From positions 1 to 26,172 of the IMG/VR virus record IMGVR_UViG_2548876702_000015: a DNA stretch of 26,172 nt, one strand, 5' to 3'. This DNA is from a virus. Its lineage: Duplodnaviria; Heunggongvirae; Uroviricota; Caudoviricetes. A program made the position numbers and the translations under genes. Every line of letters starts with the position of its first letter. Positions within the stretch are counted from its first letter, which is position 1. Positions 12,550 to 24,931 of the stretch are shown here, one piece after another. The notes beneath the pieces are model-generated. The model searched no databases and was not told the origin of the DNA. It worked only from the letters and a program-made list of their open reading frames with translations.

Positions 12550-13595
12550 TGGGAAAGAGTAAGAAGAACCGCGCTGCGGCGACGAAACAGATCCAGCTTA
12601 AAAGTCAAACTACAGCCGAAGCATTCAGCTTCGGCGATCCCGTTCCTGTTCTGGACCGCCGTGAACTGCTGGACTATGTGGAATGCGTACAGATGGATCG
12701 CTGGTATGAGCCGCCTGTCAGCTTTGACGGACTGGCACGAACCTTCCGCGCCGCCGTGCATCACAGCTCACCAATTGCGGTGAAATGCAACATTCTGACC
12801 AGTACCTACATCCCTCACCCGCTGCTCAGCCAGCAGGCTTTTTCACGTTTTGTGCAGGACTATCTGGTATTTGGTAACGCCTACCTGGAGAAACGCACGA
12901 ACCGCTTCGGTGAAGTTATCGCCCTTGAGCCTGCTCTGGCAAAATACACCCGACGCGGGTTAGACCTGGATACCTACTGGTTTGTGCAATACGGTATGAC
13001 AACCCAGCCGTATCAGTTCACGAAAGGCAGCATTTTTCATCTGATGGAACCGGACATCAACCAGGAGATCTACGGCCTGCCAGGTTATCTTTCTGCCATT
13101 CCATCAGCCCTGCTCAACGAGTCCGCCACGCTGTTCCGCCGGAAGTATTATATTAACGGCAGTCATGCAGGCTTCATCATGTACATGACCGATGCCGCGC
13201 AGAACCAGGAGGATGTGAACAACCTCCGCAATGCAATGAAAAGTGCCAAAGGGCCAGGCAACTTCCGCAACCTGTTTATGTACTCTCCTAACGGCAAAAA
13301 GGACGGGCTTCAGATTATCCCGTTGTCAGAAGTCGCGGCGAAGGATGAGTTTCTGAATATCAAGAACGTGAGCCGGGACGACATGATGGCGGCACACCGT
13401 GTGCCGCCGCAAATGATGGGGATAATGCCTAATAATGTTGGGGGCTTTGGTGATGTGGAGAAGGCTAGTCGTGTTTTTGTCCGCAACGAACTGATGCCCC
13501 TGCAGAAACAGCTACAAGAACTTAACTATTGGCTAGGCGAAGAAGCAATACGCTTTGATGCCTACTCCCTAAATTTCACAAACGATTCTTTTTGA
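12549..13595 (+). CDS. Q: Portal protein Q (P2 gpQ-like)
   Basis: ATG at 12549 overlapping the P stop (TGATG); ~348 aa. Position downstream of P, next to the expected cos region. Confidence 0.9.
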   Translation: MGKSKKNRAAATKQIQLKSQTTAEAFSFGDPVPVLDRRELLDYVECVQMDRWYEPPVSFDGLARTFRAAVHHSSPIAVKCNILTSTYIPHPLLSQQAFSRFVQDYLVFGNAYLEKRTNRFGEVIALEPALAKYTRRGLDLDTYWFVQYGMTTQPYQFTKGSIFHLMEPDINQEIYGLPGYLSAIPSALLNESATLFRRKYYINGSHAGFIMYMTDAAQNQEDVNNLRNAMKSAKGPGNFRNLFMYSPNGKKDGLQIIPLSEVAAKDEFLNIKNVSRDDMMAAHRVPPQMMGIMPNNVGGFGDVEKASRVFVRNELMPLQKQLQELNYWLGEEAIRFDAYSLNFTNDSF

Positions 13596-13640
13596 TAAAT
13601 ATGCTGGGCCCCCCCCCGGCATTTACTCACGCCCCAATTT
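13596..13640. other. Candidate cos (cohesive-end) region just downstream of the portal gene, containing a 9-C homopolymer
   Basis: In P2-family genomes cos lies next to the 3' end of Q. The reverse complement here reads GGGGCGTGAGTAAATGCCGGGGGGGGGCCCAGCAT, which resembles the GC-rich P2/186 cohesive ends (GGCG(A/T)GGCGGGGAAAGCA(C/T), as recalled) only loosely. Confidence 0.3.
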
Positions 13641-15377
13641 CCATACTGAATTATACGATAAAATACTTAGTTCAGCAGCTCTTGACCTCATATGATCGGG
13701 CGTCCATTCTCCTTGATATTTATTTTCAAATTCATCAATAAAAATTTTAACTAGCGCATATTGTGATTGTTTATAAATTTCAAGCTTATCCACAACAGAC
13801 TTATTTCCAGCTTTTTCATTTAATTCTTTTGAAAGTGGTAATAAATTTCCTATCATGCTATATACTTCAGAATCCCCCACACTCTGAGGCTGAATATGCT
13901 CTAATGTTAATGAATCAGGCATATACTCCCCCGTTTTCATGTGATGTAACTCAAGTCTATTAAAAATGTACTGAATCAACCTTTTATTTTTCAACTCTTG
14001 ATTTGAAAATTTAAGCATAACAAACTTTTCAACAAACATATTAATGTCTGGTTTTCTCTTCACCAACATTTCAAGCAAAGACTTTATTACTTGTCTATTA
14101 CTAGCTTTAGTAGAACCTTCATCCACTAAAGCCCTAGCAGCTTTAGCATACGCACTTTCAATACCTGATGGTCGCAATGAACAAATAGCATTAAACATAA
14201 AATGAAAGCGTTCAATTGACAGCACTGCATTATTCATATCAACAAGTTTTAGCGTTCCTCTTGCTCTTGCCTTAAATAAAGATAACAAAAATGGTTTATT
14301 CTGAGATATGTTAAACAGCCTTAATGCCTGCAAACCTCGATAAACTGGTTTCATTTCCAGTTCAGGAAAATCCTGTTCTGTAGGCGATGATATTTTCACA
14401 TATATCTCGGCATCTGAAAGTAGCTCATCAATGAACGCTGAAGCATCAATGTCGCCTTTTTTCCACTTATCCAGAAAAGCTTTATAAAGAGTGTCACTAC
14501 TTACATAAGAATATTTTGACACCCACCAATGACGGATAAATGTCTCGATAGAACCGACACCATTACGACTAGCAATTATTTGCCTAATTTTATTCCATTT
14601 AGTTTTTGCATCATCATCAGGATGTGTGCCATTCAGTTTCTTAAATAATTTGTTTTTTATAAGATCTACATAACTTAAGTTTAATCCCCTAGCATTCAGA
14701 GTTTCAAAGATTGTATAAGCTTCATCTTCATCATTAACTGTAATATAAATCACTTTCAGATACCGTAGAACTTGATCCCGCACAGCCTTCAACGCTTCCA
14801 AGTAGATAAATTTCTCTCTATCTACTCCTAATGTCTGGCAAAGATTATCTTCTGAAAGATACTCAGTTAAATCATTATATGAAGATTGCAAGTTTCTTTC
14901 TTCAAGGGACTCCGGTCCTTCATTTCTCTTATCAATATGCTGAATGTTGTTTTGAAAGTATGGCTTAGGAGTTTCATTAACTAATTTAAAAAAAGGTCTG
15001 CCATCGTCATCCATACCAGATATATAATTATTATATATTGATTGAGCTACAGCCAACTCATTTATCAACTTAAATTTATCACATAATGCTGATAACAATA
15101 TAGTAAGAGTCGTAAGACGTTGTTGACCATCTACAATCATCAGCTCAGAGCTAGTTTCCTGCCCGACCAAAACGAGAGCACCGATGAAATACTCATCATA
15201 TTGATACTGCCCATCCTCCTGGTAATGAATATTGGAAACTATATCATGCCAAAGTTCACTTACTTGTTCCTTCCCCCAAGAATATTCTCTTTGGAATCTA
15301 GGGACTATATATTTTTTATTTACAGATAACACGTTTGTTAAGGTTCGAGCATTTGCTTGCAGTTCCACTGAGGCCAC
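13623..15377 (-). CDS. DUF262 (ParB-like, DGQQR motif) + DUF1524 (His-Me finger) nuclease, GmrSD-like candidate type IV restriction / anti-phage protein
   Basis: 584 aa. N-terminal motifs ..YIVPRFQREYSW.. and IVDGQQRLTTL, and FETLNARG, are DUF262 hallmarks. C-terminal LEHIQPQS ... NLLPLSKELNEKAGNK fits the DUF1524 pattern. AT-rich relative to flanking phage genes. Start is GTG at 15377. Confidence 0.7.
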   Translation of the reverse strand: MASVELQANARTLTNVLSVNKKYIVPRFQREYSWGKEQVSELWHDIVSNIHYQEDGQYQYDEYFIGALVLVGQETSSELMIVDGQQRLTTLTILLSALCDKFKLINELAVAQSIYNNYISGMDDDGRPFFKLVNETPKPYFQNNIQHIDKRNEGPESLEERNLQSSYNDLTEYLSEDNLCQTLGVDREKFIYLEALKAVRDQVLRYLKVIYITVNDEDEAYTIFETLNARGLNLSYVDLIKNKLFKKLNGTHPDDDAKTKWNKIRQIIASRNGVGSIETFIRHWWVSKYSYVSSDTLYKAFLDKWKKGDIDASAFIDELLSDAEIYVKISSPTEQDFPELEMKPVYRGLQALRLFNISQNKPFLLSLFKARARGTLKLVDMNNAVLSIERFHFMFNAICSLRPSGIESAYAKAARALVDEGSTKASNRQVIKSLLEMLVKRKPDINMFVEKFVMLKFSNQELKNKRLIQYIFNRLELHHMKTGEYMPDSLTLEHIQPQSVGDSEVYSMIGNLLPLSKELNEKAGNKSVVDKLEIYKQSQYALVKIFIDEFENKYQGEWTPDHMRSRAAELSILSYNSVWKLGRE

Positions 15378-15509
15378 CTACTTTAGTTGTTTGTATTACA
15401 CAGTTTTATAGCATTGGAGTTTGAATGACAACCCGTTGCGCGCGCTCGTATCCCCGCCACGCCTGCCCGCTTTATGTAGTGGTTTTCATGCAGATGCATG
15501 CTCTACGCA

Positions 15510-15540
15510 AAAGCCCGCCAGTTCTGGCGGGCTTTTGCAA
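15510..15540 (-). terminator. Rho-independent terminator (bidirectional hairpin) after the three-gene operon
   Basis: GCCCGCC-agttct-GGCGGGC stem-loop flanked by A-run and T-run (caaaaGCCCGCCagttctGGCGGGCttttgc), 60-90 nt downstream of the stop of the 15600..16016 gene. Confidence 0.6.
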
Positions 15541-15599
15541 AAACGATCCTCAAACGATCATGCGATTTCATGCAGCATAGTCATGCAAAGTAGAAACTG

Positions 15600-16016
15600 C
15601 TATTTAACGTCCGGCGTTTGCGCTGTGGGGGATACTTTTCCATCTAGCGTATTTACAATTGAGAGGGGGTAAATTCCCATTTCAATTCCACAGATCACGT
15701 CGTAACGAGCCTGCGCTTTCTCTCGCATTTCTGGAGAAACAGGGGACGATGGTGCATTTAAAACTGCTTCGGCTTGCTTCTTCAGAGCCTTCAACCGCCT
15801 TTTCAGTTTGATTTCTTGCGGATCAACAGCATAAATCGTCCATGCAAAAGTAAAAACTTCGCTTAAAAGAATTGACACCATCGGTATTGAAGCAATGTAA
15901 AGGTCTTTCCATGTTGGATCTGTAATGAAGCTAGCCAGCTTTATTAGGAAAAGGCCTACACCGCCGCCACCTGTAACACCGACTGCTTTACCGCTTGTTT
16001 TCTTTTGTTCAGGCAT
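15600..16016 (-). CDS. Small membrane protein (2 predicted TM helices), third gene of the uncharacterised three-gene operon
   Basis: ATG at 16016-16014 with a strong AGGAAGGAG SD, 2 nt after the stop of the preceding gene; 138 aa. Hydrophobic segments GVTGGGGVGLFLIKLASFI and IPMVSILLSEVFTFAWTIYAV, with a Lys/Arg-rich helix between. Confidence 0.5.
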   Translation of the reverse strand: MPEQKKTSGKAVGVTGGGGVGLFLIKLASFITDPTWKDLYIASIPMVSILLSEVFTFAWTIYAVDPQEIKLKRRLKALKKQAEAVLNAPSSPVSPEMREKAQARYDVICGIEMGIYPLSIVNTLDGKVSPTAQTPDVK

Positions 16017-16272
16017 GAGAGGCTGACTCCTTCCTCTCACGCTTATTTTTCTCTGCTATATCATCGATGAGCTTTATTAACTCATCATCATTGTTTATAT
16101 AAATATTTGTTTTATAGACATTTTTGTTTGCATCAGTATAAGTGATAGAAACTTTTGTTTCGACAATAACTCGATCGAGCAGGCTACGTATAGCCACTCT
16201 AGCACCTATAAATATAGCTGGAGCTGCAACAAGCAGCCCCAACCATCCTAACACACTAATATCTATAGACAT
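16009..16272 (-). CDS. Small single-pass membrane protein, second gene of the three-gene operon
   Basis: 87 aa, ATG at 16272-16270, 2 nt after the stop of the 304-aa gene. N-terminal TM helix (ISVLGWLGLLVAAPAIFIGARVAI) then a charged soluble tail. Confidence 0.5.
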   Translation of the reverse strand: MSIDISVLGWLGLLVAAPAIFIGARVAIRSLLDRVIVETKVSITYTDANKNVYKTNIYINNDDELIKLIDDIAEKNKRERKESASHA

Positions 16273-16274
16273 TT

Positions 16275-17189
16275 TTAATCCGCATCAGGTTTTATTTTTC
16301 TATCTTTGGCGGCAAAGTGTCGACCCACTTTGATGATCGATAACTTTTCGTCTACCTGGCCACCGGAATCTTTCACAATTTTCTTCATCTTCACAGCAAA
16401 CAATTCGCCAAAAATTTTGGGGGCGTCTGGTCCAGTAACAAGCTTGATGAACTCATTATCTTCCATTCTGACATTGCGCTTTTCACCGCCAAACTCAACA
16501 CGCCAGCCACTTTTTTTGTCAGTATGCGCCGAAACGAATGTCACGGTTGTTTCAAATTCGTCAACTTCTTCTTTGGTTTCAAAGAGAACTTTTGGCGACT
16601 TAAACTCTTCTGCCTCATCTTTATGAATTTTGAGGATTTCTTTCTTAGAGGTGCGCGATTTTTTTACCACAAAATTGTCGATACCATCTTGTAACAGAGG
16701 CTGTCTGACAAACGCGTCAACAGCCTTACGAATCTCTGGGGCATTAACGATTTTTTCGACATCTTCAGAGCAAACAATCTCTTCACCATCGACTTTCAGC
16801 TTAACTTTGTCACTACCGTTAGCTTTCTCGACTATGTCGATCTTACGCCCGTTAAGCTTCTTGAGAACCTCTAAAACTGTAGCACCGCCAACGGCTAAAG
16901 GAATGGCTGACAAACCTAAAATTTGTACAACATCTTTAGCATTAGCTAGATGTTGTACAACCTCAATATCAAACCCAAAGGAACCGGCTATCAATTCAGC
17001 GTCAACGTTAACTTCAATGTCTCGCCCTCCGTTTACAATCTCATTTGCAGAGTAGATAGCCTCACCTAGCCCCTGCAAACTTTTCGCAAACGAAAGAATA
17101 TCCATCTTATGATCGTCGAGAGCTTTGCCTTGATACACAATACTTACTGATTGAGTCTTATCCGCCATTGAGTTCAGATCCGTTGCCAA
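16275..17189 (-). CDS. Hypothetical soluble protein (~297-304 aa), first gene of the three-gene operon; no family recognised
   Basis: Long ORF with coding-like composition, Lys/Glu/Asp-rich C-terminal half. TTG at 17189 or ATG at 17168 are possible starts. AT-rich accessory context. Confidence 0.55.
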   Translation of the reverse strand: MATDLNSMADKTQSVSIVYQGKALDDHKMDILSFAKSLQGLGEAIYSANEIVNGGRDIEVNVDAELIAGSFGFDIEVVQHLANAKDVVQILGLSAIPLAVGGATVLEVLKKLNGRKIDIVEKANGSDKVKLKVDGEEIVCSEDVEKIVNAPEIRKAVDAFVRQPLLQDGIDNFVVKKSRTSKKEILKIHKDEAEEFKSPKVLFETKEEVDEFETTVTFVSAHTDKKSGWRVEFGGEKRNVRMEDNEFIKLVTGPDAPKIFGELFAVKMKKIVKDSGGQVDEKLSIIKVGRHFAAKDRKIKPDAD

Positions 17190-17304
17190 TAAAATGCGCG
17201 CGATTTTACGCCCATCACTATGTTTAATCTATCTATTAATCATTTATCCCTCTAGCTGTCTACTATCGGACTCAAAAAACATGACTCATTACAAACGAAA
17301 CCTA

Positions 17305-17538
17305 TCAATGCAGCCAGCAGTCGTCTTCCCACACCTTCTGCATAATTTTCAGCACTTGTTTTCTTTCTTCGTCCAGTTGCAGTCCGGTCAGTTCCACACC
17401 GTTAGAGCTACCTTTGCGGATACGAATTACCGTTTTGGGATACAGGGGGCGCAGATTGCGGTAAAGCTCGGATTCAAGGGCATCCAGGGTAGACTGGCTA
17501 ATCTTCTGCTCTTTATCGATCATTATTTCAATGCGCAT
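17305..17538 (-). CDS. DinI-family protein (SOS-induced; Tum/DinI-like)
   Basis: 77 aa from ATG 17538-17536 with a GAGGTG SD. MRIEIMIDKEQ..LDALESELYRNLRPLYPKTVIRIRKGSSNGVELTGL..KQVLKIMQKVWEDDCW parallels E. coli DinI (MRIEVTIAK...) as recalled. Downstream of a LexA box. Confidence 0.6.
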   Translation of the reverse strand: MRIEIMIDKEQKISQSTLDALESELYRNLRPLYPKTVIRIRKGSSNGVELTGLQLDEERKQVLKIMQKVWEDDCWLH

Positions 17539-17890: not shown

Positions 17891-20263
17891 TTAATACAGG
17901 TTTCGCCACTTATCATCTTCCTGCAAACGCTGGTTCCGATAGAAGATACGCAGGCCTGCTCCTGACGGAATACTGCCGCCGCGAAGGAGTAAATCGACCT
18001 CTTTCTCGCTGCCATCAAATCCTCTGGACTTCAGTTCATAGACGAGCTGCTGTCGCTGATGGTCTGTAATTCGCTGTTTGTAGTCTTTACGCCGTTTCGG
18101 TTTCACCAGGCGTAACCTTGCAGCCAGTTCCCGGCGCTCTTTTTTGCTCATACTGTGCAGGTAATCGTGCAACTCCTTGTCATCCATGCGGGTAATGTCC
18201 GTCCTGGTATCCCCATCAGCTGATTTGTCTTTCCCTTGTTGGTTCAAATTTTCAGCAAGGGGACAGTTATTGCCACGAGTCCAAGGGGCGCAAGCGCCCT
18301 GGTCGGCTGCCGCCTCCTGAACATCAACGGCCTTACGAACCATTTTCCACTTCACGGCATGAGTGCAGATCTTGCCCTCTGCAATAGGTGACCAGATGCC
18401 ATAAATACGAATGCCGTGATCGCCATAGGCGGTCGGCTCTTCGTTGATTTCATAAGCGGTTCTGATGAGGTGATATTTGCGGGGAACCAGTACGCCGCCC
18501 TGCTTCATGATGTAGGTGGCAAAACAACCAGCATCAGCAGCAGCCAGGATGGCATCAAGGCGCGGGTTATCCAGTACCGGCGCACCTGCTTTTTTGTCCC
18601 CCTGTTGCCTTGCCGCCTGACCAGCCAGCAATCGCAGTTCACGGTAAGCCTGACGCCCCGGAATGCCAAAGAAGCGGAATTGCTGAACACGATGCAGAGA
18701 CGCCCAGGCATTAACGTATTCAGCATTATCACGTAGGGATTTCCCCGTTTCCTTGCTGATCTCGCCAGCCAGACCACGCCCGTCAATGTTCTTACTGATG
18801 TATTTCGCGATGTAGCTTGTTGGCGTACCTTTGCGCGGGTTAATCAACTCAGACTTAAAGCGCGGCCCAGTGTTATTGCCCAGTTCCTCGCGGTCTTCAC
18901 GGATGGCAAACTTACGCAGTAATGCAGTGATGGCGCGGCGGTCTTTTTTGCGCATAAAACACAACAGGTGCCAGTGAACTGTACCGTCATGATGCGGCTC
19001 AGCCACCCGCACGCCATACCACCGCAATCCGGCTTTGTGCATCGCCTTACGAAATGCAGCAAACATGCCGACCAGATAATCACTGCTTTGTCTTACCGTC
19101 GCATTTGTCCAAGTTGGGTTGGGCCTGCCATTATTTAGCGTGGAATGGAAACGTGACGGACAGGTGATGGTGTAGAAAACGGCGCAGTCACCGCGCATTT
19201 CCGCGATAAGCTCCAGGCCTTTAACACAGGCCATCATCTCATTGCGGCGATGCGCAGGGTTGCTGCTGCTGGCGTTTACCACATCCTCCATGTCCAGCGT
19301 GTCGCCGTCTTCGTTCACCAGTTCATGAGAACGAAAAAACTCCAGCGACTTACGGCGCTGCTCACGTTTATGCATCACGGCTTCATAGCTGACATAGGGA
19401 GATGCTTTTTTGCTGACCAGGCAGACAGCACGCAACTGCTCTTCCCGCCATTCGCAACGCATCTTCCATAATTTCCGGTACCACCAGTCAGCGCACAACA
19501 TACGCGCCAGCGAACCCGGAATGAGTTCATAGGGCACGGGTTTACGGCGGTTTCTTTTCCGGCGGAGTTGCTCAAACGCAGGCGGGATGACATCCAGACG
19601 CAGGGTTTCCGCTGCCACCTTTTCCCATGTCTTGCGGATTTCTTCTGGCTTAACGTCATCGGTGACATACAAATCGCCACAAGCTGCATCAAGGCACATG
19701 CTCATATGCGCAGCTACCAGGGTGGACAGGCGTTTCACCTGATCCTGACTCATTTCAGGCAGGATCAGCAGGCCGTCCAGCCCTTCATGGCTTGCCATAA
19801 AGCGAAAAGAAGTGGATAGCTGACAGTCGCGTACATGCTCCAGCCGTTCCAGACATGGCTTAATCGTCTCACGCAAATAGCGGGAATAAGCCTTTGGCCT
19901 GCCCAGGCTGCTGAAGTATTCAATACGTTGCATCAGTGGCTTGCTGATATGGGAAGGCTGGGCATTAACGTCCGCCAGAATGACCATATCTGGATTAAAA
20001 CGCTGCTGCTCATGCGCCAGCTTTGCCCGACTAATGAGCTTATCCTGCTCCATTTCGCGCTGGACAGGATCACGGGATTCATTAAAGAAATAACGCTCCC
20101 AGACCTGATCACTCAGTGCCTCGCGGCGCAGCTGTTCCTGCTCGTTATCGGCAGCGTACAGAGCGATCAGGTTTGAAAGCGCAGAAACTGAAGATTGCTC
20201 TTCCGTCTCTACGTAAGGATTGATTGCTTTTTTCTCAGCATTCCAGGAATAGCTGTAGTTCAT
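17891..20263 (-). CDS. A: Replication initiation endonuclease A (rolling-circle HUH nickase, P2 gpA-like)
   Basis: ~790 aa from ATG 20263-20261 ([12 protein letters not shown]). HUH-type motif (..[10 protein letters not shown]..). Position at the end of the early operon. Confidence 0.85.
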
Positions 20264-21093
20264 TACGCAATCTCCAGTTCGAGCTGTGAAGGCTGCAAAC
20301 CATTCGACAGCCAATCAGAAACTGAAGGTGGGCGAACAGCTTCAATTGCACCTTTTAAAATTGCGCAACGGTTTTTCAGAATGACAGCTTTCAGCTCCTT
20401 TTCCGTCAGATTGCGCGAATACTCAGCCTCCTGAATAGCCCGCGTCAGCTCAGGATATTTGCTATTAAATTTGGGGACATTGCAGGCAAGATTTGTACTG
20501 TCGGCAGTCGCCAGTGGGTAATTTCCCAACACACGACCGTCAAGCATGCGCAAACCATGAACAGCTGTTTTGAAATTGTGTCGGCAATAAATTGCTTCAA
20601 AAGCGTCCTGCATACGACGATGCCAGTGCGCAGTTCTGATAGCCGCATATTCACCAGACGATCCAAAGCAGACACGAGGCCATTCACGACATAGCTCGAT
20701 AAGCCGATCGATTGACTCGTGCAGATGCCAGACGGGAGTTGCCTTCCCGTAGAACATTTTCGGAACTTCGTTTATCAGGGCATCATTGTCACGTTCACCT
20801 CCGTCCACAACATCAGGAATGACAAAAAAAGCGACCTTAGGATGGTGGTAATAGTTCAGGAGCCATTTATAAAAATCACTCCAGTTAATTTTTAGCCCAC
20901 GCACCCATGCAGAAAATGCGCCGTTATCAATGCCGACGACCTGAGCGTGCTGAATGGACGCCGCAATCTGATCTGGTCGTACATAGGAGACGAAAGCGCC
21001 AGCTCCGCTCACCGCAATACGATGAACGTCGCCAGCACTTCCCCAGACAGGCGTCCCATGGAAATGATGAATTCCGTGGTGCATTTCTTTCAC
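20263..21093 (-). CDS. Hypothetical protein (~273 aa), His-rich N-terminus, co-transcribed between Dam and A; function unknown
   Basis: Track start is GTG at 21093; ATG at 21084-21082 gives [15 protein letters not shown]... Stop overlaps the A start (TAATG). No family confidently recognised. Confidence 0.55.
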
Positions 21094-21944
21094 ACTTGCA
21101 CCCCGAAAATAACAGTAGAGTCACGTCCCCTACTAAAATCGGCACTAAACCAATTAGCAGATTTAGTGGCAATCATCTCTGTTGCAAATTTTCCCTCCCC
21201 CGCTGCAACGCCGATGCTGCGTTTCGCCCTGATGTAGTGGTGAGTGAAATTACGATAAAGGGACCGGGTCAAAGACGTGTTACTGTTAGAAACAATGACC
21301 GGATGTCCTTCTGATGACCGATGTTCAAGAATGGATGCCAGGTGATACTGATCATCTTCAGTGAAACCATCAGTGTGATAGCCGGAAAACGTACCGTCAT
21401 AAGGCGGATCGCAATACACCACATCCCCCACCTTCAACATCGCCAGCGTTTCATCAAAGCTGGCGCAGATAAACGTTGCCCGCTGGGCTTTCTCTGCAAA
21501 TGCGCGAATTTCTTTTTCAGGGAAATACGGATTTTTATAATTACCGTAGGGAATGTTGAAATGCCCGCTCTTGTTATAGCGACATAAACCACGGTAACCG
21601 TGACGATTGAGATACAGGAAATATACCGCTTTCATGAAATCAGTAATTTCAGTGGAGTAATTAAACTCCTGCCTTATGTTGTAATAAGCCGCCTCCCTGT
21701 TTGCTTCCTCAAATAAAGCTCTGGCACGAGATATAAACGCCTCACAATCAGCAGCAACCTTTTTATAGAGGTTGATTAAATCAGGATTAATATCCGCAAC
21801 AAGATAGCTGGGGTAATCCGTCTCCATCATCACTGCACAGGAACCCGCGAAAGGTTCAACCAGTCGCGGGCCAGCAGGAAGATGCTTTTTCAGTTCGGAC
21901 ATTATGGCGGTTTTATTTCCTGCCCATTTCAGGATGGTGCTCAT
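21090..21944 (-). CDS. dam: DNA adenine methyltransferase (Dam/D12 class N6-adenine MTase)
   Basis: ATG at 21944-21942 ([11 protein letters not shown]..). SAM-binding motif ..[10 protein letters not shown].. and catalytic DPPY motif (VYCDPPYDG). 284 aa. Confidence 0.8.
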
Positions 21945-22168
21945 ACAGCACCTCCGTTGTAATGTTTGCCTTTCAGCTCTGCGATTTCCTGACAGGTAAT
22001 GCAAAGCTGCACACCCGGAATGGCACGGCGGCGTGCTGGCGGAATTGGCGCTTCACACTCAACGCAAAGCACGCGGGACACGCCCGGCGTTTTGGCACGG
22101 GCAGCACGGATATGGCGTTGGCGTTCTTCTTCAACGCGCTGCTGTACGAGATCCATTGCATCAGCCAT
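21941..22168 (-). CDS. TraR/DksA-family C4 zinc-finger protein
   Basis: 75 aa, ATG at 22168-22166. CVECEAPIP..(x17)..CITCQ four-cysteine zinc-finger spacing. Stop overlaps the Dam start. Confidence 0.7.
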   Translation of the reverse strand: MADAMDLVQQRVEEERQRHIRAARAKTPGVSRVLCVECEAPIPPARRRAIPGVQLCITCQEIAELKGKHYNGGAV

Positions 22169-24739: not shown

Positions 24740-24931
24740 ATGCTTGGTAAGGTATTTTTTGTGGTTTTGTCATGTTCTTTGTTATTAAACCCACTAACTA
24801 CCTATGCTAGAAATTATCCCTGCTCAGGGAAAAAGGGAGGTGTTTCTCACTGTACCTCAGATGGCAAATTCGTTTGCAATGATGGAACTATTAGTAAATC
24901 CAAAAAAATCTGTACTAAAAACTCACGATAA
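24740..24931 (+). CDS. Small secreted cysteine-rich protein (moron) between cI and int
   Basis: 63 aa, ATG at 24740 with a GGGAGG SD. Signal-peptide-like N-terminus ([23 protein letters not shown]). Mature ~40 aa with 4 Cys ([33 protein letters not shown]). AT-rich. Confidence 0.5.

Follow-up and report, generated by a model that had tools for sequence, protein, structure and literature searches.

Enzymes of the DpdA family replace guanines in DNA with 7-deazaguanine bases, and those encoded by phages without preQ0 synthesis genes are termed singleton DpdAs, the largest and least understood group of DpdAs. Such "DpdA-only" phages are a recognised group (Hutinet 2019, PMC6884629), with SEN1, HK106 and 7-11 among those listed in Supplementary Data 1 of that study. 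DNA base exchange, the presumed common chemistry, has been examined in the Queuovirinae enzymes of CAjan and 9g (DpdA1, preQ0/G+): deletion of dpdA leads to the loss of dPreQ0 from CAjan DNA, and the 9g DpdA alone in E. coli is enough for dPreQ0 to appear in plasmid DNA (PMC6884629). CAjan encodes FolE, QueD, QueE, QueC and YhhQ beside dpdA and has ~32% of its G modified. Singleton phages contain dADG at 0.02% of G in 7-11 (PMC6884629) and at 0.13% of G in MED16, where it did not detectably protect against any restriction enzyme tested, while Orion showed zero modification (PMC6884629). Beyond the MED16 and Hutinet papers, we found no literature on DpdA in P2-like phages or on DpdA-Dam fusions.

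The locus described here is the early operon of a P2/186-like prophage from E. coli, contained in a window of 26,172 nucleotides (the whole stretch of viral DNA that was analysed). On its minus strand, a TraR/DksA-type zinc-finger gene (21941-22168; PF01258, 4.4e-11) is followed by dam (21090-21944, ATG at 21944), which encodes a D12-class N6-adenine DNA methyltransferase of 284 aa, by a dpdA-like gene (20263-21084), whose 273-aa product is predicted to be a short, Zn-less DpdA-family DNA guanine transglycosylase, and by the replication initiator gene A (17891-20263, ATG at 20263-20261; PF05840, 1.3e-127), whose product is named "replication endonuclease" in RefSeq. The placement that the initial annotation had given for dam, the 273-aa ORF and gene A was confirmed, and its description of overlapping stop and start signals holds for two of the junctions: the zinc-finger stop overlaps the dam start in ATGA, and the dpdA stop overlaps the gene A ATG by 1 nt in TAATG, with the GGAGA Shine-Dalgarno of gene A lying within dpdA. 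The third junction, between dam and the 273-aa ORF, hinges on the choice of start codon. Translation from ATG 21084 to the stop at 20263 yields a protein beginning [10 protein letters not shown] and leaves a 5-nt gap, and only the alternative GTG at 21093, which would give 276 aa, the length of most homologues, produces a GTGA overlap with dam. Shine-Dalgarno sequences are present in the operon, and terminators are not in excess.

Family assignment, fold and conserved residues of the 273-aa protein

Searches with the 273-aa protein recovered 1929 homologues at E<=1e-5, and 903 clusters at 50% identity were obtained; the ORF is therefore a real gene. The protein matched PHROG 887, "queuine tRNA-ribosyltransferase", at 2.4e-96, and its closest described relatives are SEN1 gp38 of Salmonella (75% identical), the MED16 gp38 DpdA of Pantoea (55%), HK106 gp29 of Escherichia (38% by tblastn to 43% by MAFFT) and 7-11 gp032 of Salmonella (34-40%). 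It also shares its motifs and its length class (234-276 aa) with the gamma-proteobacterial singleton DpdAs, "group 3" of Hutinet 2019. A profile scan of genome contigs with a diverse family alignment returned 11 loci. The same product is present in RefSeq (WP_001420002.1, 273 aa), where, unlike the DpdA-listed SEN1 gp38, the E. coli allele is still named "hypothetical protein".

Profile comparison extends this relationship to an experimentally validated enzyme. When a 70-sequence family alignment was compared with the CAjan DpdA using hhalign, a match of 98.9% (E 1.8e-17) over 174 columns was obtained at 18% identity, with DNGAFS aligned to DSGAFS, PVWH to PCFH and ADST to CDSS (common patterns D-x-G-A-F-S, P-x-x-H and D-S-[ST]). 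General databases were silent: the 273-aa protein had no match in Pfam (E<=1), NCBIfam or PADLOC, searches of PDB sequences by phmmer and hmmsearch with the single protein and with close (A1) and diverse (A2) alignments gave spurious coiled-coil matches and no TGT, and hhalign of the family against E. coli Tgt alone showed no signal (0.7%). The validated CAjan DpdA likewise lacks Pfam, NCBIfam and PDB-chain sequence matches.

The AlphaFold2 (AF2) model of the protein (pLDDT 90.5) is an eight-stranded barrel with the TGT-like (beta/alpha)8 arrangement. In a viral structure library it had 31 matches at E<=1e-3, and 10 of the 12 that carry descriptive names are phage "queuine/queuosine tRNA-ribosyltransferases"; a Foldseek search of the PDB, which the initial annotation had proposed, was uninformative, placing pyruvate kinase and other TIM barrels on top. 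The invariant residues D53, D91, H120, H176 and D195 all lie at the C-terminal ends of strands in the model, and D53 (DNGAF), D91 (IPDV), H120 (PVWH) and D195 (ADST) are invariant among the 70 members, at 27-59% identity. D53, H120 and D195 align with the CAjan DpdA; the alignment near D91 is ambiguous, and residues were mapped onto the bacterial DpdA structure (7UI4) by spacing only. The retention of the catalytic residues in clusters down to 27% identity argues that TGT-type chemistry has been retained. PHROG 887, the CAjan profile match, the TGT-like barrel and the DpdA-listed homologues together support a TGT/DpdA-like base-exchange enzyme, which had been offered as a guess. On the evidence of its sequence and structural model, we assign the 273-aa protein as a "singleton" phage DpdA, a predicted DNA guanine transglycosylase of the TGT superfamily; it joins a family that is already catalogued and whose function is still poorly understood.

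Several features set the protein apart from other members of the superfamily. The bacterial DpdA of the S. Montevideo Dpd restriction-modification system (7UI4), an enzyme of ~400 aa, carries a Zn site as well as a large insertion, Ins8, depends on the ATPase DpdB and is encoded within a dpdA-K cluster; none of these features is seen here. The Zn site of the C-terminal TGT subdomain (CxCxxC...H) was not found, and the family alignment has no conserved Cys or His past residue 197, which rules out a Zn-binding TGT; the CAjan DpdA also lacks this site. The N-terminus had been described as His-rich, and this is correct in that H7 and H9-G10 form part of a conserved beta-1 motif, HYHGTP (H9 and G10 are at least 90% conserved across the 70 diverse members), but H2, H3 and H6 are lineage-specific, so a His-rich metal tag is ruled out. 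The loop expected to contact the 7-substituent reads GSSG, whereas it reads GGMV in the CAjan and bacterial DpdAs, suggesting that the substrate is possibly not preQ0.

A variable slot 5' of gene A and a probable link to DNA methylation

The upstream partner in this operon had been called a D12-class N6-adenine methyltransferase, correctly so given its matches to PF02086 (1.4e-76, 258 bits) and TIGR00571 "dam" (4.4e-95, 318 bits against a curated cut-off of 115) and the FAGS and DPPY motifs seen in its translation. Its identity to E. coli K-12 Dam is 47%; it scores 289 bits against the host-Dam equivalog model, under the 441-bit cut-off, and matches the PADLOC orphan MTase model at 4.8e-110. 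The phage Dam is probably GATC-specific.

Comparison of related prophages showed that the zinc-finger gene bounds, on the upstream side, a variable slot occupied by Dam, DpdA or both, and that dpdA lies directly 5' of gene A in ~85 related loci. The order ZnF-Dam-DpdA-A was found in 50 loci, ZnF-DUF5405-DpdA-A in 25 (including SEN1) and ZnF-DpdA-A in 10, while Klebsiella phage KP12 has ZnF-Dam-A. SEN1 gp38 and SW9 gp39 occupy the identical slot directly upstream of gene A, although the upstream neighbour in SEN1 is DUF5405 and in this prophage Dam. Among complete E. coli genomes, the DpdA gene is present in 107 of 5426 (~2%); 1240 match the Dam region, and 102 have Dam and DpdA together (>=80% of the query). 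An obligate Dam-DpdA pair is thus ruled out, since related prophages can have either gene alone in this slot.

These distributions bear directly on the strongest alternative, namely that Dam and the DpdA-like gene are unrelated accessory cassettes that share a slot upstream of gene A and have no functional coupling. The occurrence of Dam alone, DpdA alone, DUF5405-DpdA and both in the slot fits this explanation, as does the small share of Dam-region genomes that have both genes. Against it stand natural fusions of the two activities: DpdA and D12-class Dam are joined in a single chain in two lineages (L012 and P0272), and a third lineage (P0274) combines DpdA with an MT-A70 methylase. Three further composite proteins, P0011 (Dam 1-193 with DpdA 45-272), P0125 (DpdA with GPD) and P0273 (DpdA with A), were not counted as fusions, being probable artefacts of frameshift, deletion or assembly. 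Methylase genes also occur near dpdA relatives, since a C5-methylase-like gene adjoins one fusion locus and MED16 has an adenine methylase six genes upstream of dpdA. Such repeated fusion is difficult to account for unless the partners have a substrate or a selective advantage in common; we place independent cassettes at slightly below even odds. The proposal that the coupling of the gene to a methylase points to a DNA-modification role is supported with a qualification: the coupling is facultative, but the natural DpdA-methylase fusions support a functional link.

Precursor supply and a proposed DNA-marking mechanism

In contrast to CAjan, this prophage has no homologues of FolE, QueD, QueE, QueC or YhhQ within the window, and none were found in the related loci examined; the same lack of a phage preQ0 pathway characterises the singleton DpdA phages SEN1, SW9, MED16, HK106 and 7-11. 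The base must therefore come from the host, and because the 9g DpdA alone modifies plasmid DNA, the host pool is sufficient. Relatives of the protein have their own ties to deazapurines: a gene for a Vut_1/YhhQ-family transporter lies directly upstream of dpdA relatives in three independent contexts (Tbat1_6, L100/L101 and L102), and one relative (P0201) is a QueD-DpdA fusion protein. Together, the DpdA-Dam and DpdA-MT-A70 fusions and the adjacency of YhhQ-type transporters argue for a DNA substrate and a combined modification role.

With the family membership, fold, conservation of catalytic positions, operon anatomy and the methylase and deazapurine links of relatives as the observed basis, we infer the identity of the inserted base, its target sites, the modification level and the biological benefit. 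Our preferred reading, to which we give a probability of roughly 0.7, is that singleton DpdA and Dam form a module in which a host-derived 7-deazaguanine is placed into phage DNA as part of two-enzyme marking. The dpdA gene would be co-transcribed with dam and gene A, and coupled to them in translation, in the early lytic operon, and its position there implies that the enzyme is made upon prophage induction or infection. The product would be a compact TIM-barrel enzyme of the TGT superfamily without the Zn subdomain, acting by double displacement, with D195 (ADST) as the proposed nucleophile, D53 (DNGAF) as the proposed general acid/base, and D91 and H120 as proposed base readers. It would take selected guanines out of the double-stranded DNA of the phage and put in their place a 7-deazaguanine base, either preQ0 or its amide ADG, supplied by the queuosine pathway of the host. 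Sparse dPreQ0 or dADG is expected to result, well below 1% of G, as measured in phages with homologues. Together with the m6A of Dam, this activity would constitute a two-enzyme DNA-marking module, the likeliest benefit of which would be evasion of restriction by the host or of other defences that sense DNA.

A more specific version, which we offer tentatively and consider unlikely, is that the DpdA branch with the GSSG loop is tuned not to preQ0 but to ADG or another host intermediate and may be half of a two-base marking unit with the N6-adenine methyltransferase. Given the recurrent fusions, the methylase might bring the transglycosylase to particular sites, for example a G beside a methylated A; if so, a doubly modified motif could evade both methylation-sensitive and methylation-dependent nucleases.

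Alternatively, the protein may remove a base without inserting a 7-deazaguanine, as a glycosylase-like or otherwise diverged enzyme, or may support gene A without catalysis. Its invariable position directly upstream of gene A in related loci, with translational coupling, would suit such a role, as would the very low modification of singleton DpdA phages, down to zero in Orion, and the unlikeness of its 7-substituent loop to that of preQ0-specific DpdAs. However, the proposed catalytic residues are all invariant across the divergent clusters, the family also occurs in lambdoid and lytic phages that lack gene A, and the Vut_1 adjacency and QueD fusion tie it to deazapurines; we regard a diverged or non-catalytic protein as rather improbable. 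An RNA substrate, with the protein acting as a phage-encoded tRNA-guanine transglycosylase and altering the wobble modification of host or phage tRNA, draws on the superfamily fold and on the "queuine tRNA-ribosyltransferase" names of relatives in databases, but it is very improbable: neither Pfam TGT (PF01702) nor E. coli Tgt is matched, neither a Zn subdomain nor C-terminal tRNA-binding parts are present, the nearest characterised relatives modify DNA, other relatives are fused to DNA methyltransferases, and the gene is embedded in a DNA-replication operon. Binding or transfer of a protein-linked 7-amido-7-deazaguanine with no DNA base exchange, by analogy with Cap10 of type IV CBASS (9NTN), which has Cap9 and a CD-NTase as partners and a protein-linked base as its substrate, is scarcely credible given that the operon and window contain no Cap9/QueC-like enzyme or CD-NTase with an M(G/S)G(G/S)GG start, that the neighbours are Dam, the TraR/DksA zinc-finger gene and gene A, and that relatives, by their fusions and genomic surroundings, indicate a role on DNA.

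A DpdA-family label would mark these P2-like prophages out as potential carriers of DNA with 7-deazaguanines, a point of relevance to restriction, to defences of the GmrSD and glycosylase types, which sense such bases, and to modification calling by nanopore or SMRT sequencing. A convenient test system would be an inducible E. coli prophage that has two modification genes only and whose host offers complete queuosine genetics; the methylase fusions and transporter adjacency lead to concrete testable hypotheses. A GmrSD-type nuclease gene (13623-15377) is itself found in the cargo island of this window; it belongs to the variable cargo and was missing from every other locus examined, which rules out a fixed DpdA-GmrSD association. 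In a sister prophage, a TIR-domain gene takes the place of GmrSD.

Identity of the 273-aa protein

The window is a P2/186-like prophage of E. coli, and the queried 1.9-kb region has 99.9% identity matches in many complete E. coli genomes. The unassigned 273-aa ORF (20263-21084, minus strand) is labelled "hypothetical" by RefSeq in 107 of the 107 E. coli genomes carrying it and has no match in Pfam, NCBIfam or PADLOC. It matches PHROGs family 887, "queuine tRNA-ribosyltransferase", at 2.4e-96, and tblastn against phage genomes gave a graded series of identities: 75% to SEN1 gp38 and SW9 gp39 of P2-like Salmonella phages, 61% to the Flyfo siphovirus Tbat1_6, 55% to Pantoea phage MED16 gp38, 38% to HK106 gp29, and 34-36% to Salmonella phage 7-11 and many vibriophages. 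Hutinet et al. 2019 (Supplementary Data 1) list the proteins of SEN1 (YP_009217891), HK106 (YP_007151699) and 7-11 (YP_004782407) as DpdA, a DNA guanine transglycosylase, in phages without preQ0 or G+ genes; SEN1 gp38 is thus a P2-like representative catalogued in 2019, and the "third group" of that study, a gamma-proteobacterial singleton cluster, comprises 76 phages. The family is large, with 1929 proteins at E<=1e-5 in a 90%-clustered collection (903 clusters at 50% identity).

We also compared a profile of 70 diverse family members (27-59% identity) with the DpdA of phage CAjan using hhalign, which aligned 174 columns at 98.9% probability (E 1.8e-17). Deletion of CAjan DpdA abolishes dPreQ0 in CAjan DNA (Hutinet et al. 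2019). This validated enzyme has no sequence match in Pfam or PDB either, so the silence of these databases on the 273-aa protein carries no weight. The 273-aa protein is a singleton phage DpdA, so far unannotated and of a kind already catalogued; the PHROG, the CAjan profile match and the DpdA-listed homologues bear out the TGT/DpdA-like enzyme that the initial annotation had offered tentatively. In three chimeric database proteins, exactly this DpdA is joined to other sequences: to gene A via a frameshift (P0273), to Dam residues 1-193 via an internal deletion (P0011) and to a GPD baseplate protein (P0125). These chimeras probably stem from pseudogene formation or misassembly in single genomes.

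Fold and active site

AlphaFold2, run with 50 homologues, predicts an eight-stranded beta/alpha barrel (pLDDT 90.5, pTM 0.88). Unrelated TIM barrels reach 14.1, so the fold alone is only supportive, and Foldseek against PDB was non-discriminating for this model. A viral structure library returned 31 matches at E<=1e-3, and 10 of the 12 with descriptive names were phage "queuine/queuosine tRNA-ribosyltransferase". Active sites of TIM barrels lie at the C-terminal ends of the strands, and each of the residues invariant across the 70 members (D53, D91, H120, H176, D195 and S196) occupies such a position in the model. The strand motifs are HYHGTP (b1), (L/I)DNGAFS (b3), IPDVIDG (b4), PVWH(L/M)HES (b5), GSSG(E/Q)Y (b6), HGLRML(D/N) (b7) and SADSTN (b8).

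Among the residues essential in S. Montevideo DpdA, D95 is the general acid/base, four residues ahead of the gate Phe99, D130 and H181 recognize the base, G206-G207-M208-V209 form a Gly-rich loop and D256 is the nucleophile (PMC10164549). The order and spacing of D53...F57, D91, H120, G141-S-S-G144 and D195 in the 273-aa protein fit this scheme, and H176, 19 residues ahead of D195, resembles the H226/D248 pair of Cap10. From this spacing and the CAjan alignment, we infer the corresponding roles for these residues. The 273-aa protein lacks the structural Zn site that TGT and bacterial DpdA possess: no Cys or His is conserved past residue 197 in the family alignment. As CAjan DpdA likewise lacks it, this site is not defining for phage DpdAs.

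DpdA and Dam in a modular operon slot

Downstream of a promoter-like site (24127-24099, minus strand), the early lytic operon carries, in order, cox/apl-like, cII, fil-like, DUF5347, DUF2732, a TraR/DksA zinc-finger gene (ZnF; 21941-22168), Dam (21090-21944), dpdA and replication gene A (17891-20263), all on the minus strand. The Dam assignment is unambiguous by sequence criteria: PF02086 is hit at 1.4e-76, TIGR00571 scores above its cut-off, the FAGS and DPPY motifs are both present, and identity to E. coli Dam is 47%. Together with the operon coordinates, this confirms the initial description of a Dam gene with an adjacent 273-aa ORF. The overlapping stop/start signals described at the same time stand for the ZnF/Dam junction (ATGA) and the dpdA/A junction (TAATG, with a GGAGA Shine-Dalgarno sequence). 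Between Dam and dpdA, a GTGA overlap exists only if translation starts at GTG 21093, giving 276 aa, the usual homologue length; the ATG start chosen by RefSeq leaves a 5-nt gap. A terminator-like hairpin lies within the Dam 3' end, just ahead of the dpdA start (21135-21113, minus strand; eight pairs, three of them G-C, then a T-run), and is probably a chance occurrence, as the 11 such sites in the region are not above the shuffled expectation of 7.2 +/- 2.2.

Upon induction or infection, the early operon would make Dam, DpdA and A together. During A-driven replication, Dam would methylate adenines, probably in GATC, and DpdA would replace a minor share of the guanines with a 7-deazaguanine taken from the host, by the double displacement with an Asp nucleophile that is typical of the family. 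The putative benefit is likely that the phage escapes certain restriction or DNA-sensing systems. The dADG of MED16 gave no protection against the enzymes tested, and 7-deazaguanine can also be a liability, being targeted by GmrSD-like GrwAB and Dag glycosylases.

The slot between ZnF and A is modular, and in a sample biased to close relatives it took four forms: ZnF-Dam-A (Klebsiella phage KP12), ZnF-DpdA-A (10 loci), ZnF-DUF5405-DpdA-A (25 loci, the SEN1 type) and ZnF-Dam-DpdA-A (50 loci, including the window). The Dam region has matches in 1240 complete E. coli genomes. Dam and DpdA occur as a pair, at a query coverage of 80% or more, in only 102, and the total with a DpdA gene is 107. Dam and DpdA thus do not form an obligate pair. 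Wherever a P2-like prophage has DpdA, it always adjoins gene A. In a sister prophage, that of E. coli 13TMH22 (L001 4602-6367), a tail gene is split by IS1203, an IS3-family element, so at least some carriers of the pair are defective prophages.

In relatives, DpdA is nevertheless repeatedly joined to adenine methylases. Rosenbergiella metrosideri JB07 encodes a 577-aa DpdA-linker-Dam(D12) protein in one uninterrupted ORF (L012:7953-9686, plus strand), with all DpdA motifs intact and a PF02086 match at 4.7e-51. A 575-aa DpdA-Dam from a different DpdA sub-branch (P0272) occurs in two independent assemblies within a lambdoid prophage (L100/L101:6001-7728), and a siphophage contig encodes a 483-aa DpdA-MT-A70 protein (P0274, L102:721-2172). 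In MED16, an adenine methylase lies six genes upstream of DpdA. The methylase fusions indicate that the substrate of the family is DNA, and that the combination of deazaguanine insertion with adenine methylation has been repeatedly selected. Two genes past the lambdoid fusion, a 264-aa gene (L100:7946-8740, plus strand) has a weak C5 DNA-methylase match (PF00145); with the fusion and a neighbouring transporter gene, it looks like part of a small DNA-modification island.

Base supply and the cargo island

We detected no homologues of FolE, QueD, QueE, QueC or YhhQ in the window or in the 8 kb flanking each of about 90 related loci, so the host must supply the base. The queuosine pathway of E. 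coli yields preQ0 and preQ1. The 9g DpdA alone introduces dPreQ0 into plasmids in E. coli, and 7-11 DNA contains dADG, with 0.02% of G modified (Hutinet et al. 2019). In MED16 DNA, 0.13% of G is modified as dADG, with only traces of dPreQ0. Both chemically analysed phages of the branch thus carry dADG rather than dPreQ0, at low density. No preQ0 hydratase is known in either phage. The loop contacting the 7-substituent is GSSG in the branch of the 273-aa protein (59 of the 70 members have S at position 142), whereas it is GGMV in CAjan and bacterial DpdA, GCCG in HK106 and GCMG in 7-11; a shifted substrate preference of the GSSG branch is possible, though only a lead.

A Vut_1/YhhQ-family transporter gene lies directly upstream of, or overlaps, a DpdA-family gene in three independent contexts: Tbat1_6 (L096:3525-4001), the lambdoid prophage (L100:5564-6031) and the siphophage contig (L102:275-748). 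These short transporters (155-158 aa; host YhhQ is longer) are 57-62% identical among themselves and 27-29% identical to the CAjan YhhQ-like protein. YhhQ is a preQ0/preQ1 importer (Hutinet et al. 2019). In a distant family member (P0201), a QueD/PTPS domain is joined to DpdA, either as a fusion or through a shared gene call. The transporter and QueD contexts link this branch, otherwise an "orphan", to 7-deazaguanine metabolism by evidence other than homology. We found no description of the methylase fusions, transporter adjacency or GSSG loop in the searchable literature, and these features raise the interest of the system modestly.

Lying between the portal gene on one side and the DinI/gene A region on the other, a variable low-GC cargo island (about 13000-17500; 34-43% GC) encodes a 584-aa GmrSD-family type IV (modification-dependent) restriction endonuclease (13623-15377, minus strand; PF03235, PF07510, PADLOC HEC-06 at 3.8e-90), carried by a phage that may itself modify its DNA with 7-deazaguanine and m6A. 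GmrSD was absent within 8 kb in all related loci examined, and an E. coli sister prophage whose Dam-DpdA pair is identical has a TIR-domain gene at this site; GmrSD is not a conserved DpdA partner. The island also holds a 304-aa ORF (16275-17189, minus strand) that scores 7.8e-44 against PDC-S42, a candidate defence family in PADLOC, with no solid Pfam assignment, and an adjoining 146-aa ORF (15600-16040, minus strand) with no Pfam or PADLOC match. Between the CI repressor and integrase, a 63-aa ORF (24740-24931, plus strand) with no Pfam match begins with a hydrophobic, signal-like segment and contains five Cys. It may be an accessory gene, active in the lysogen, for a small secreted protein or lipoprotein; the equivalent site in SEN1 holds a DUF2511 gene.
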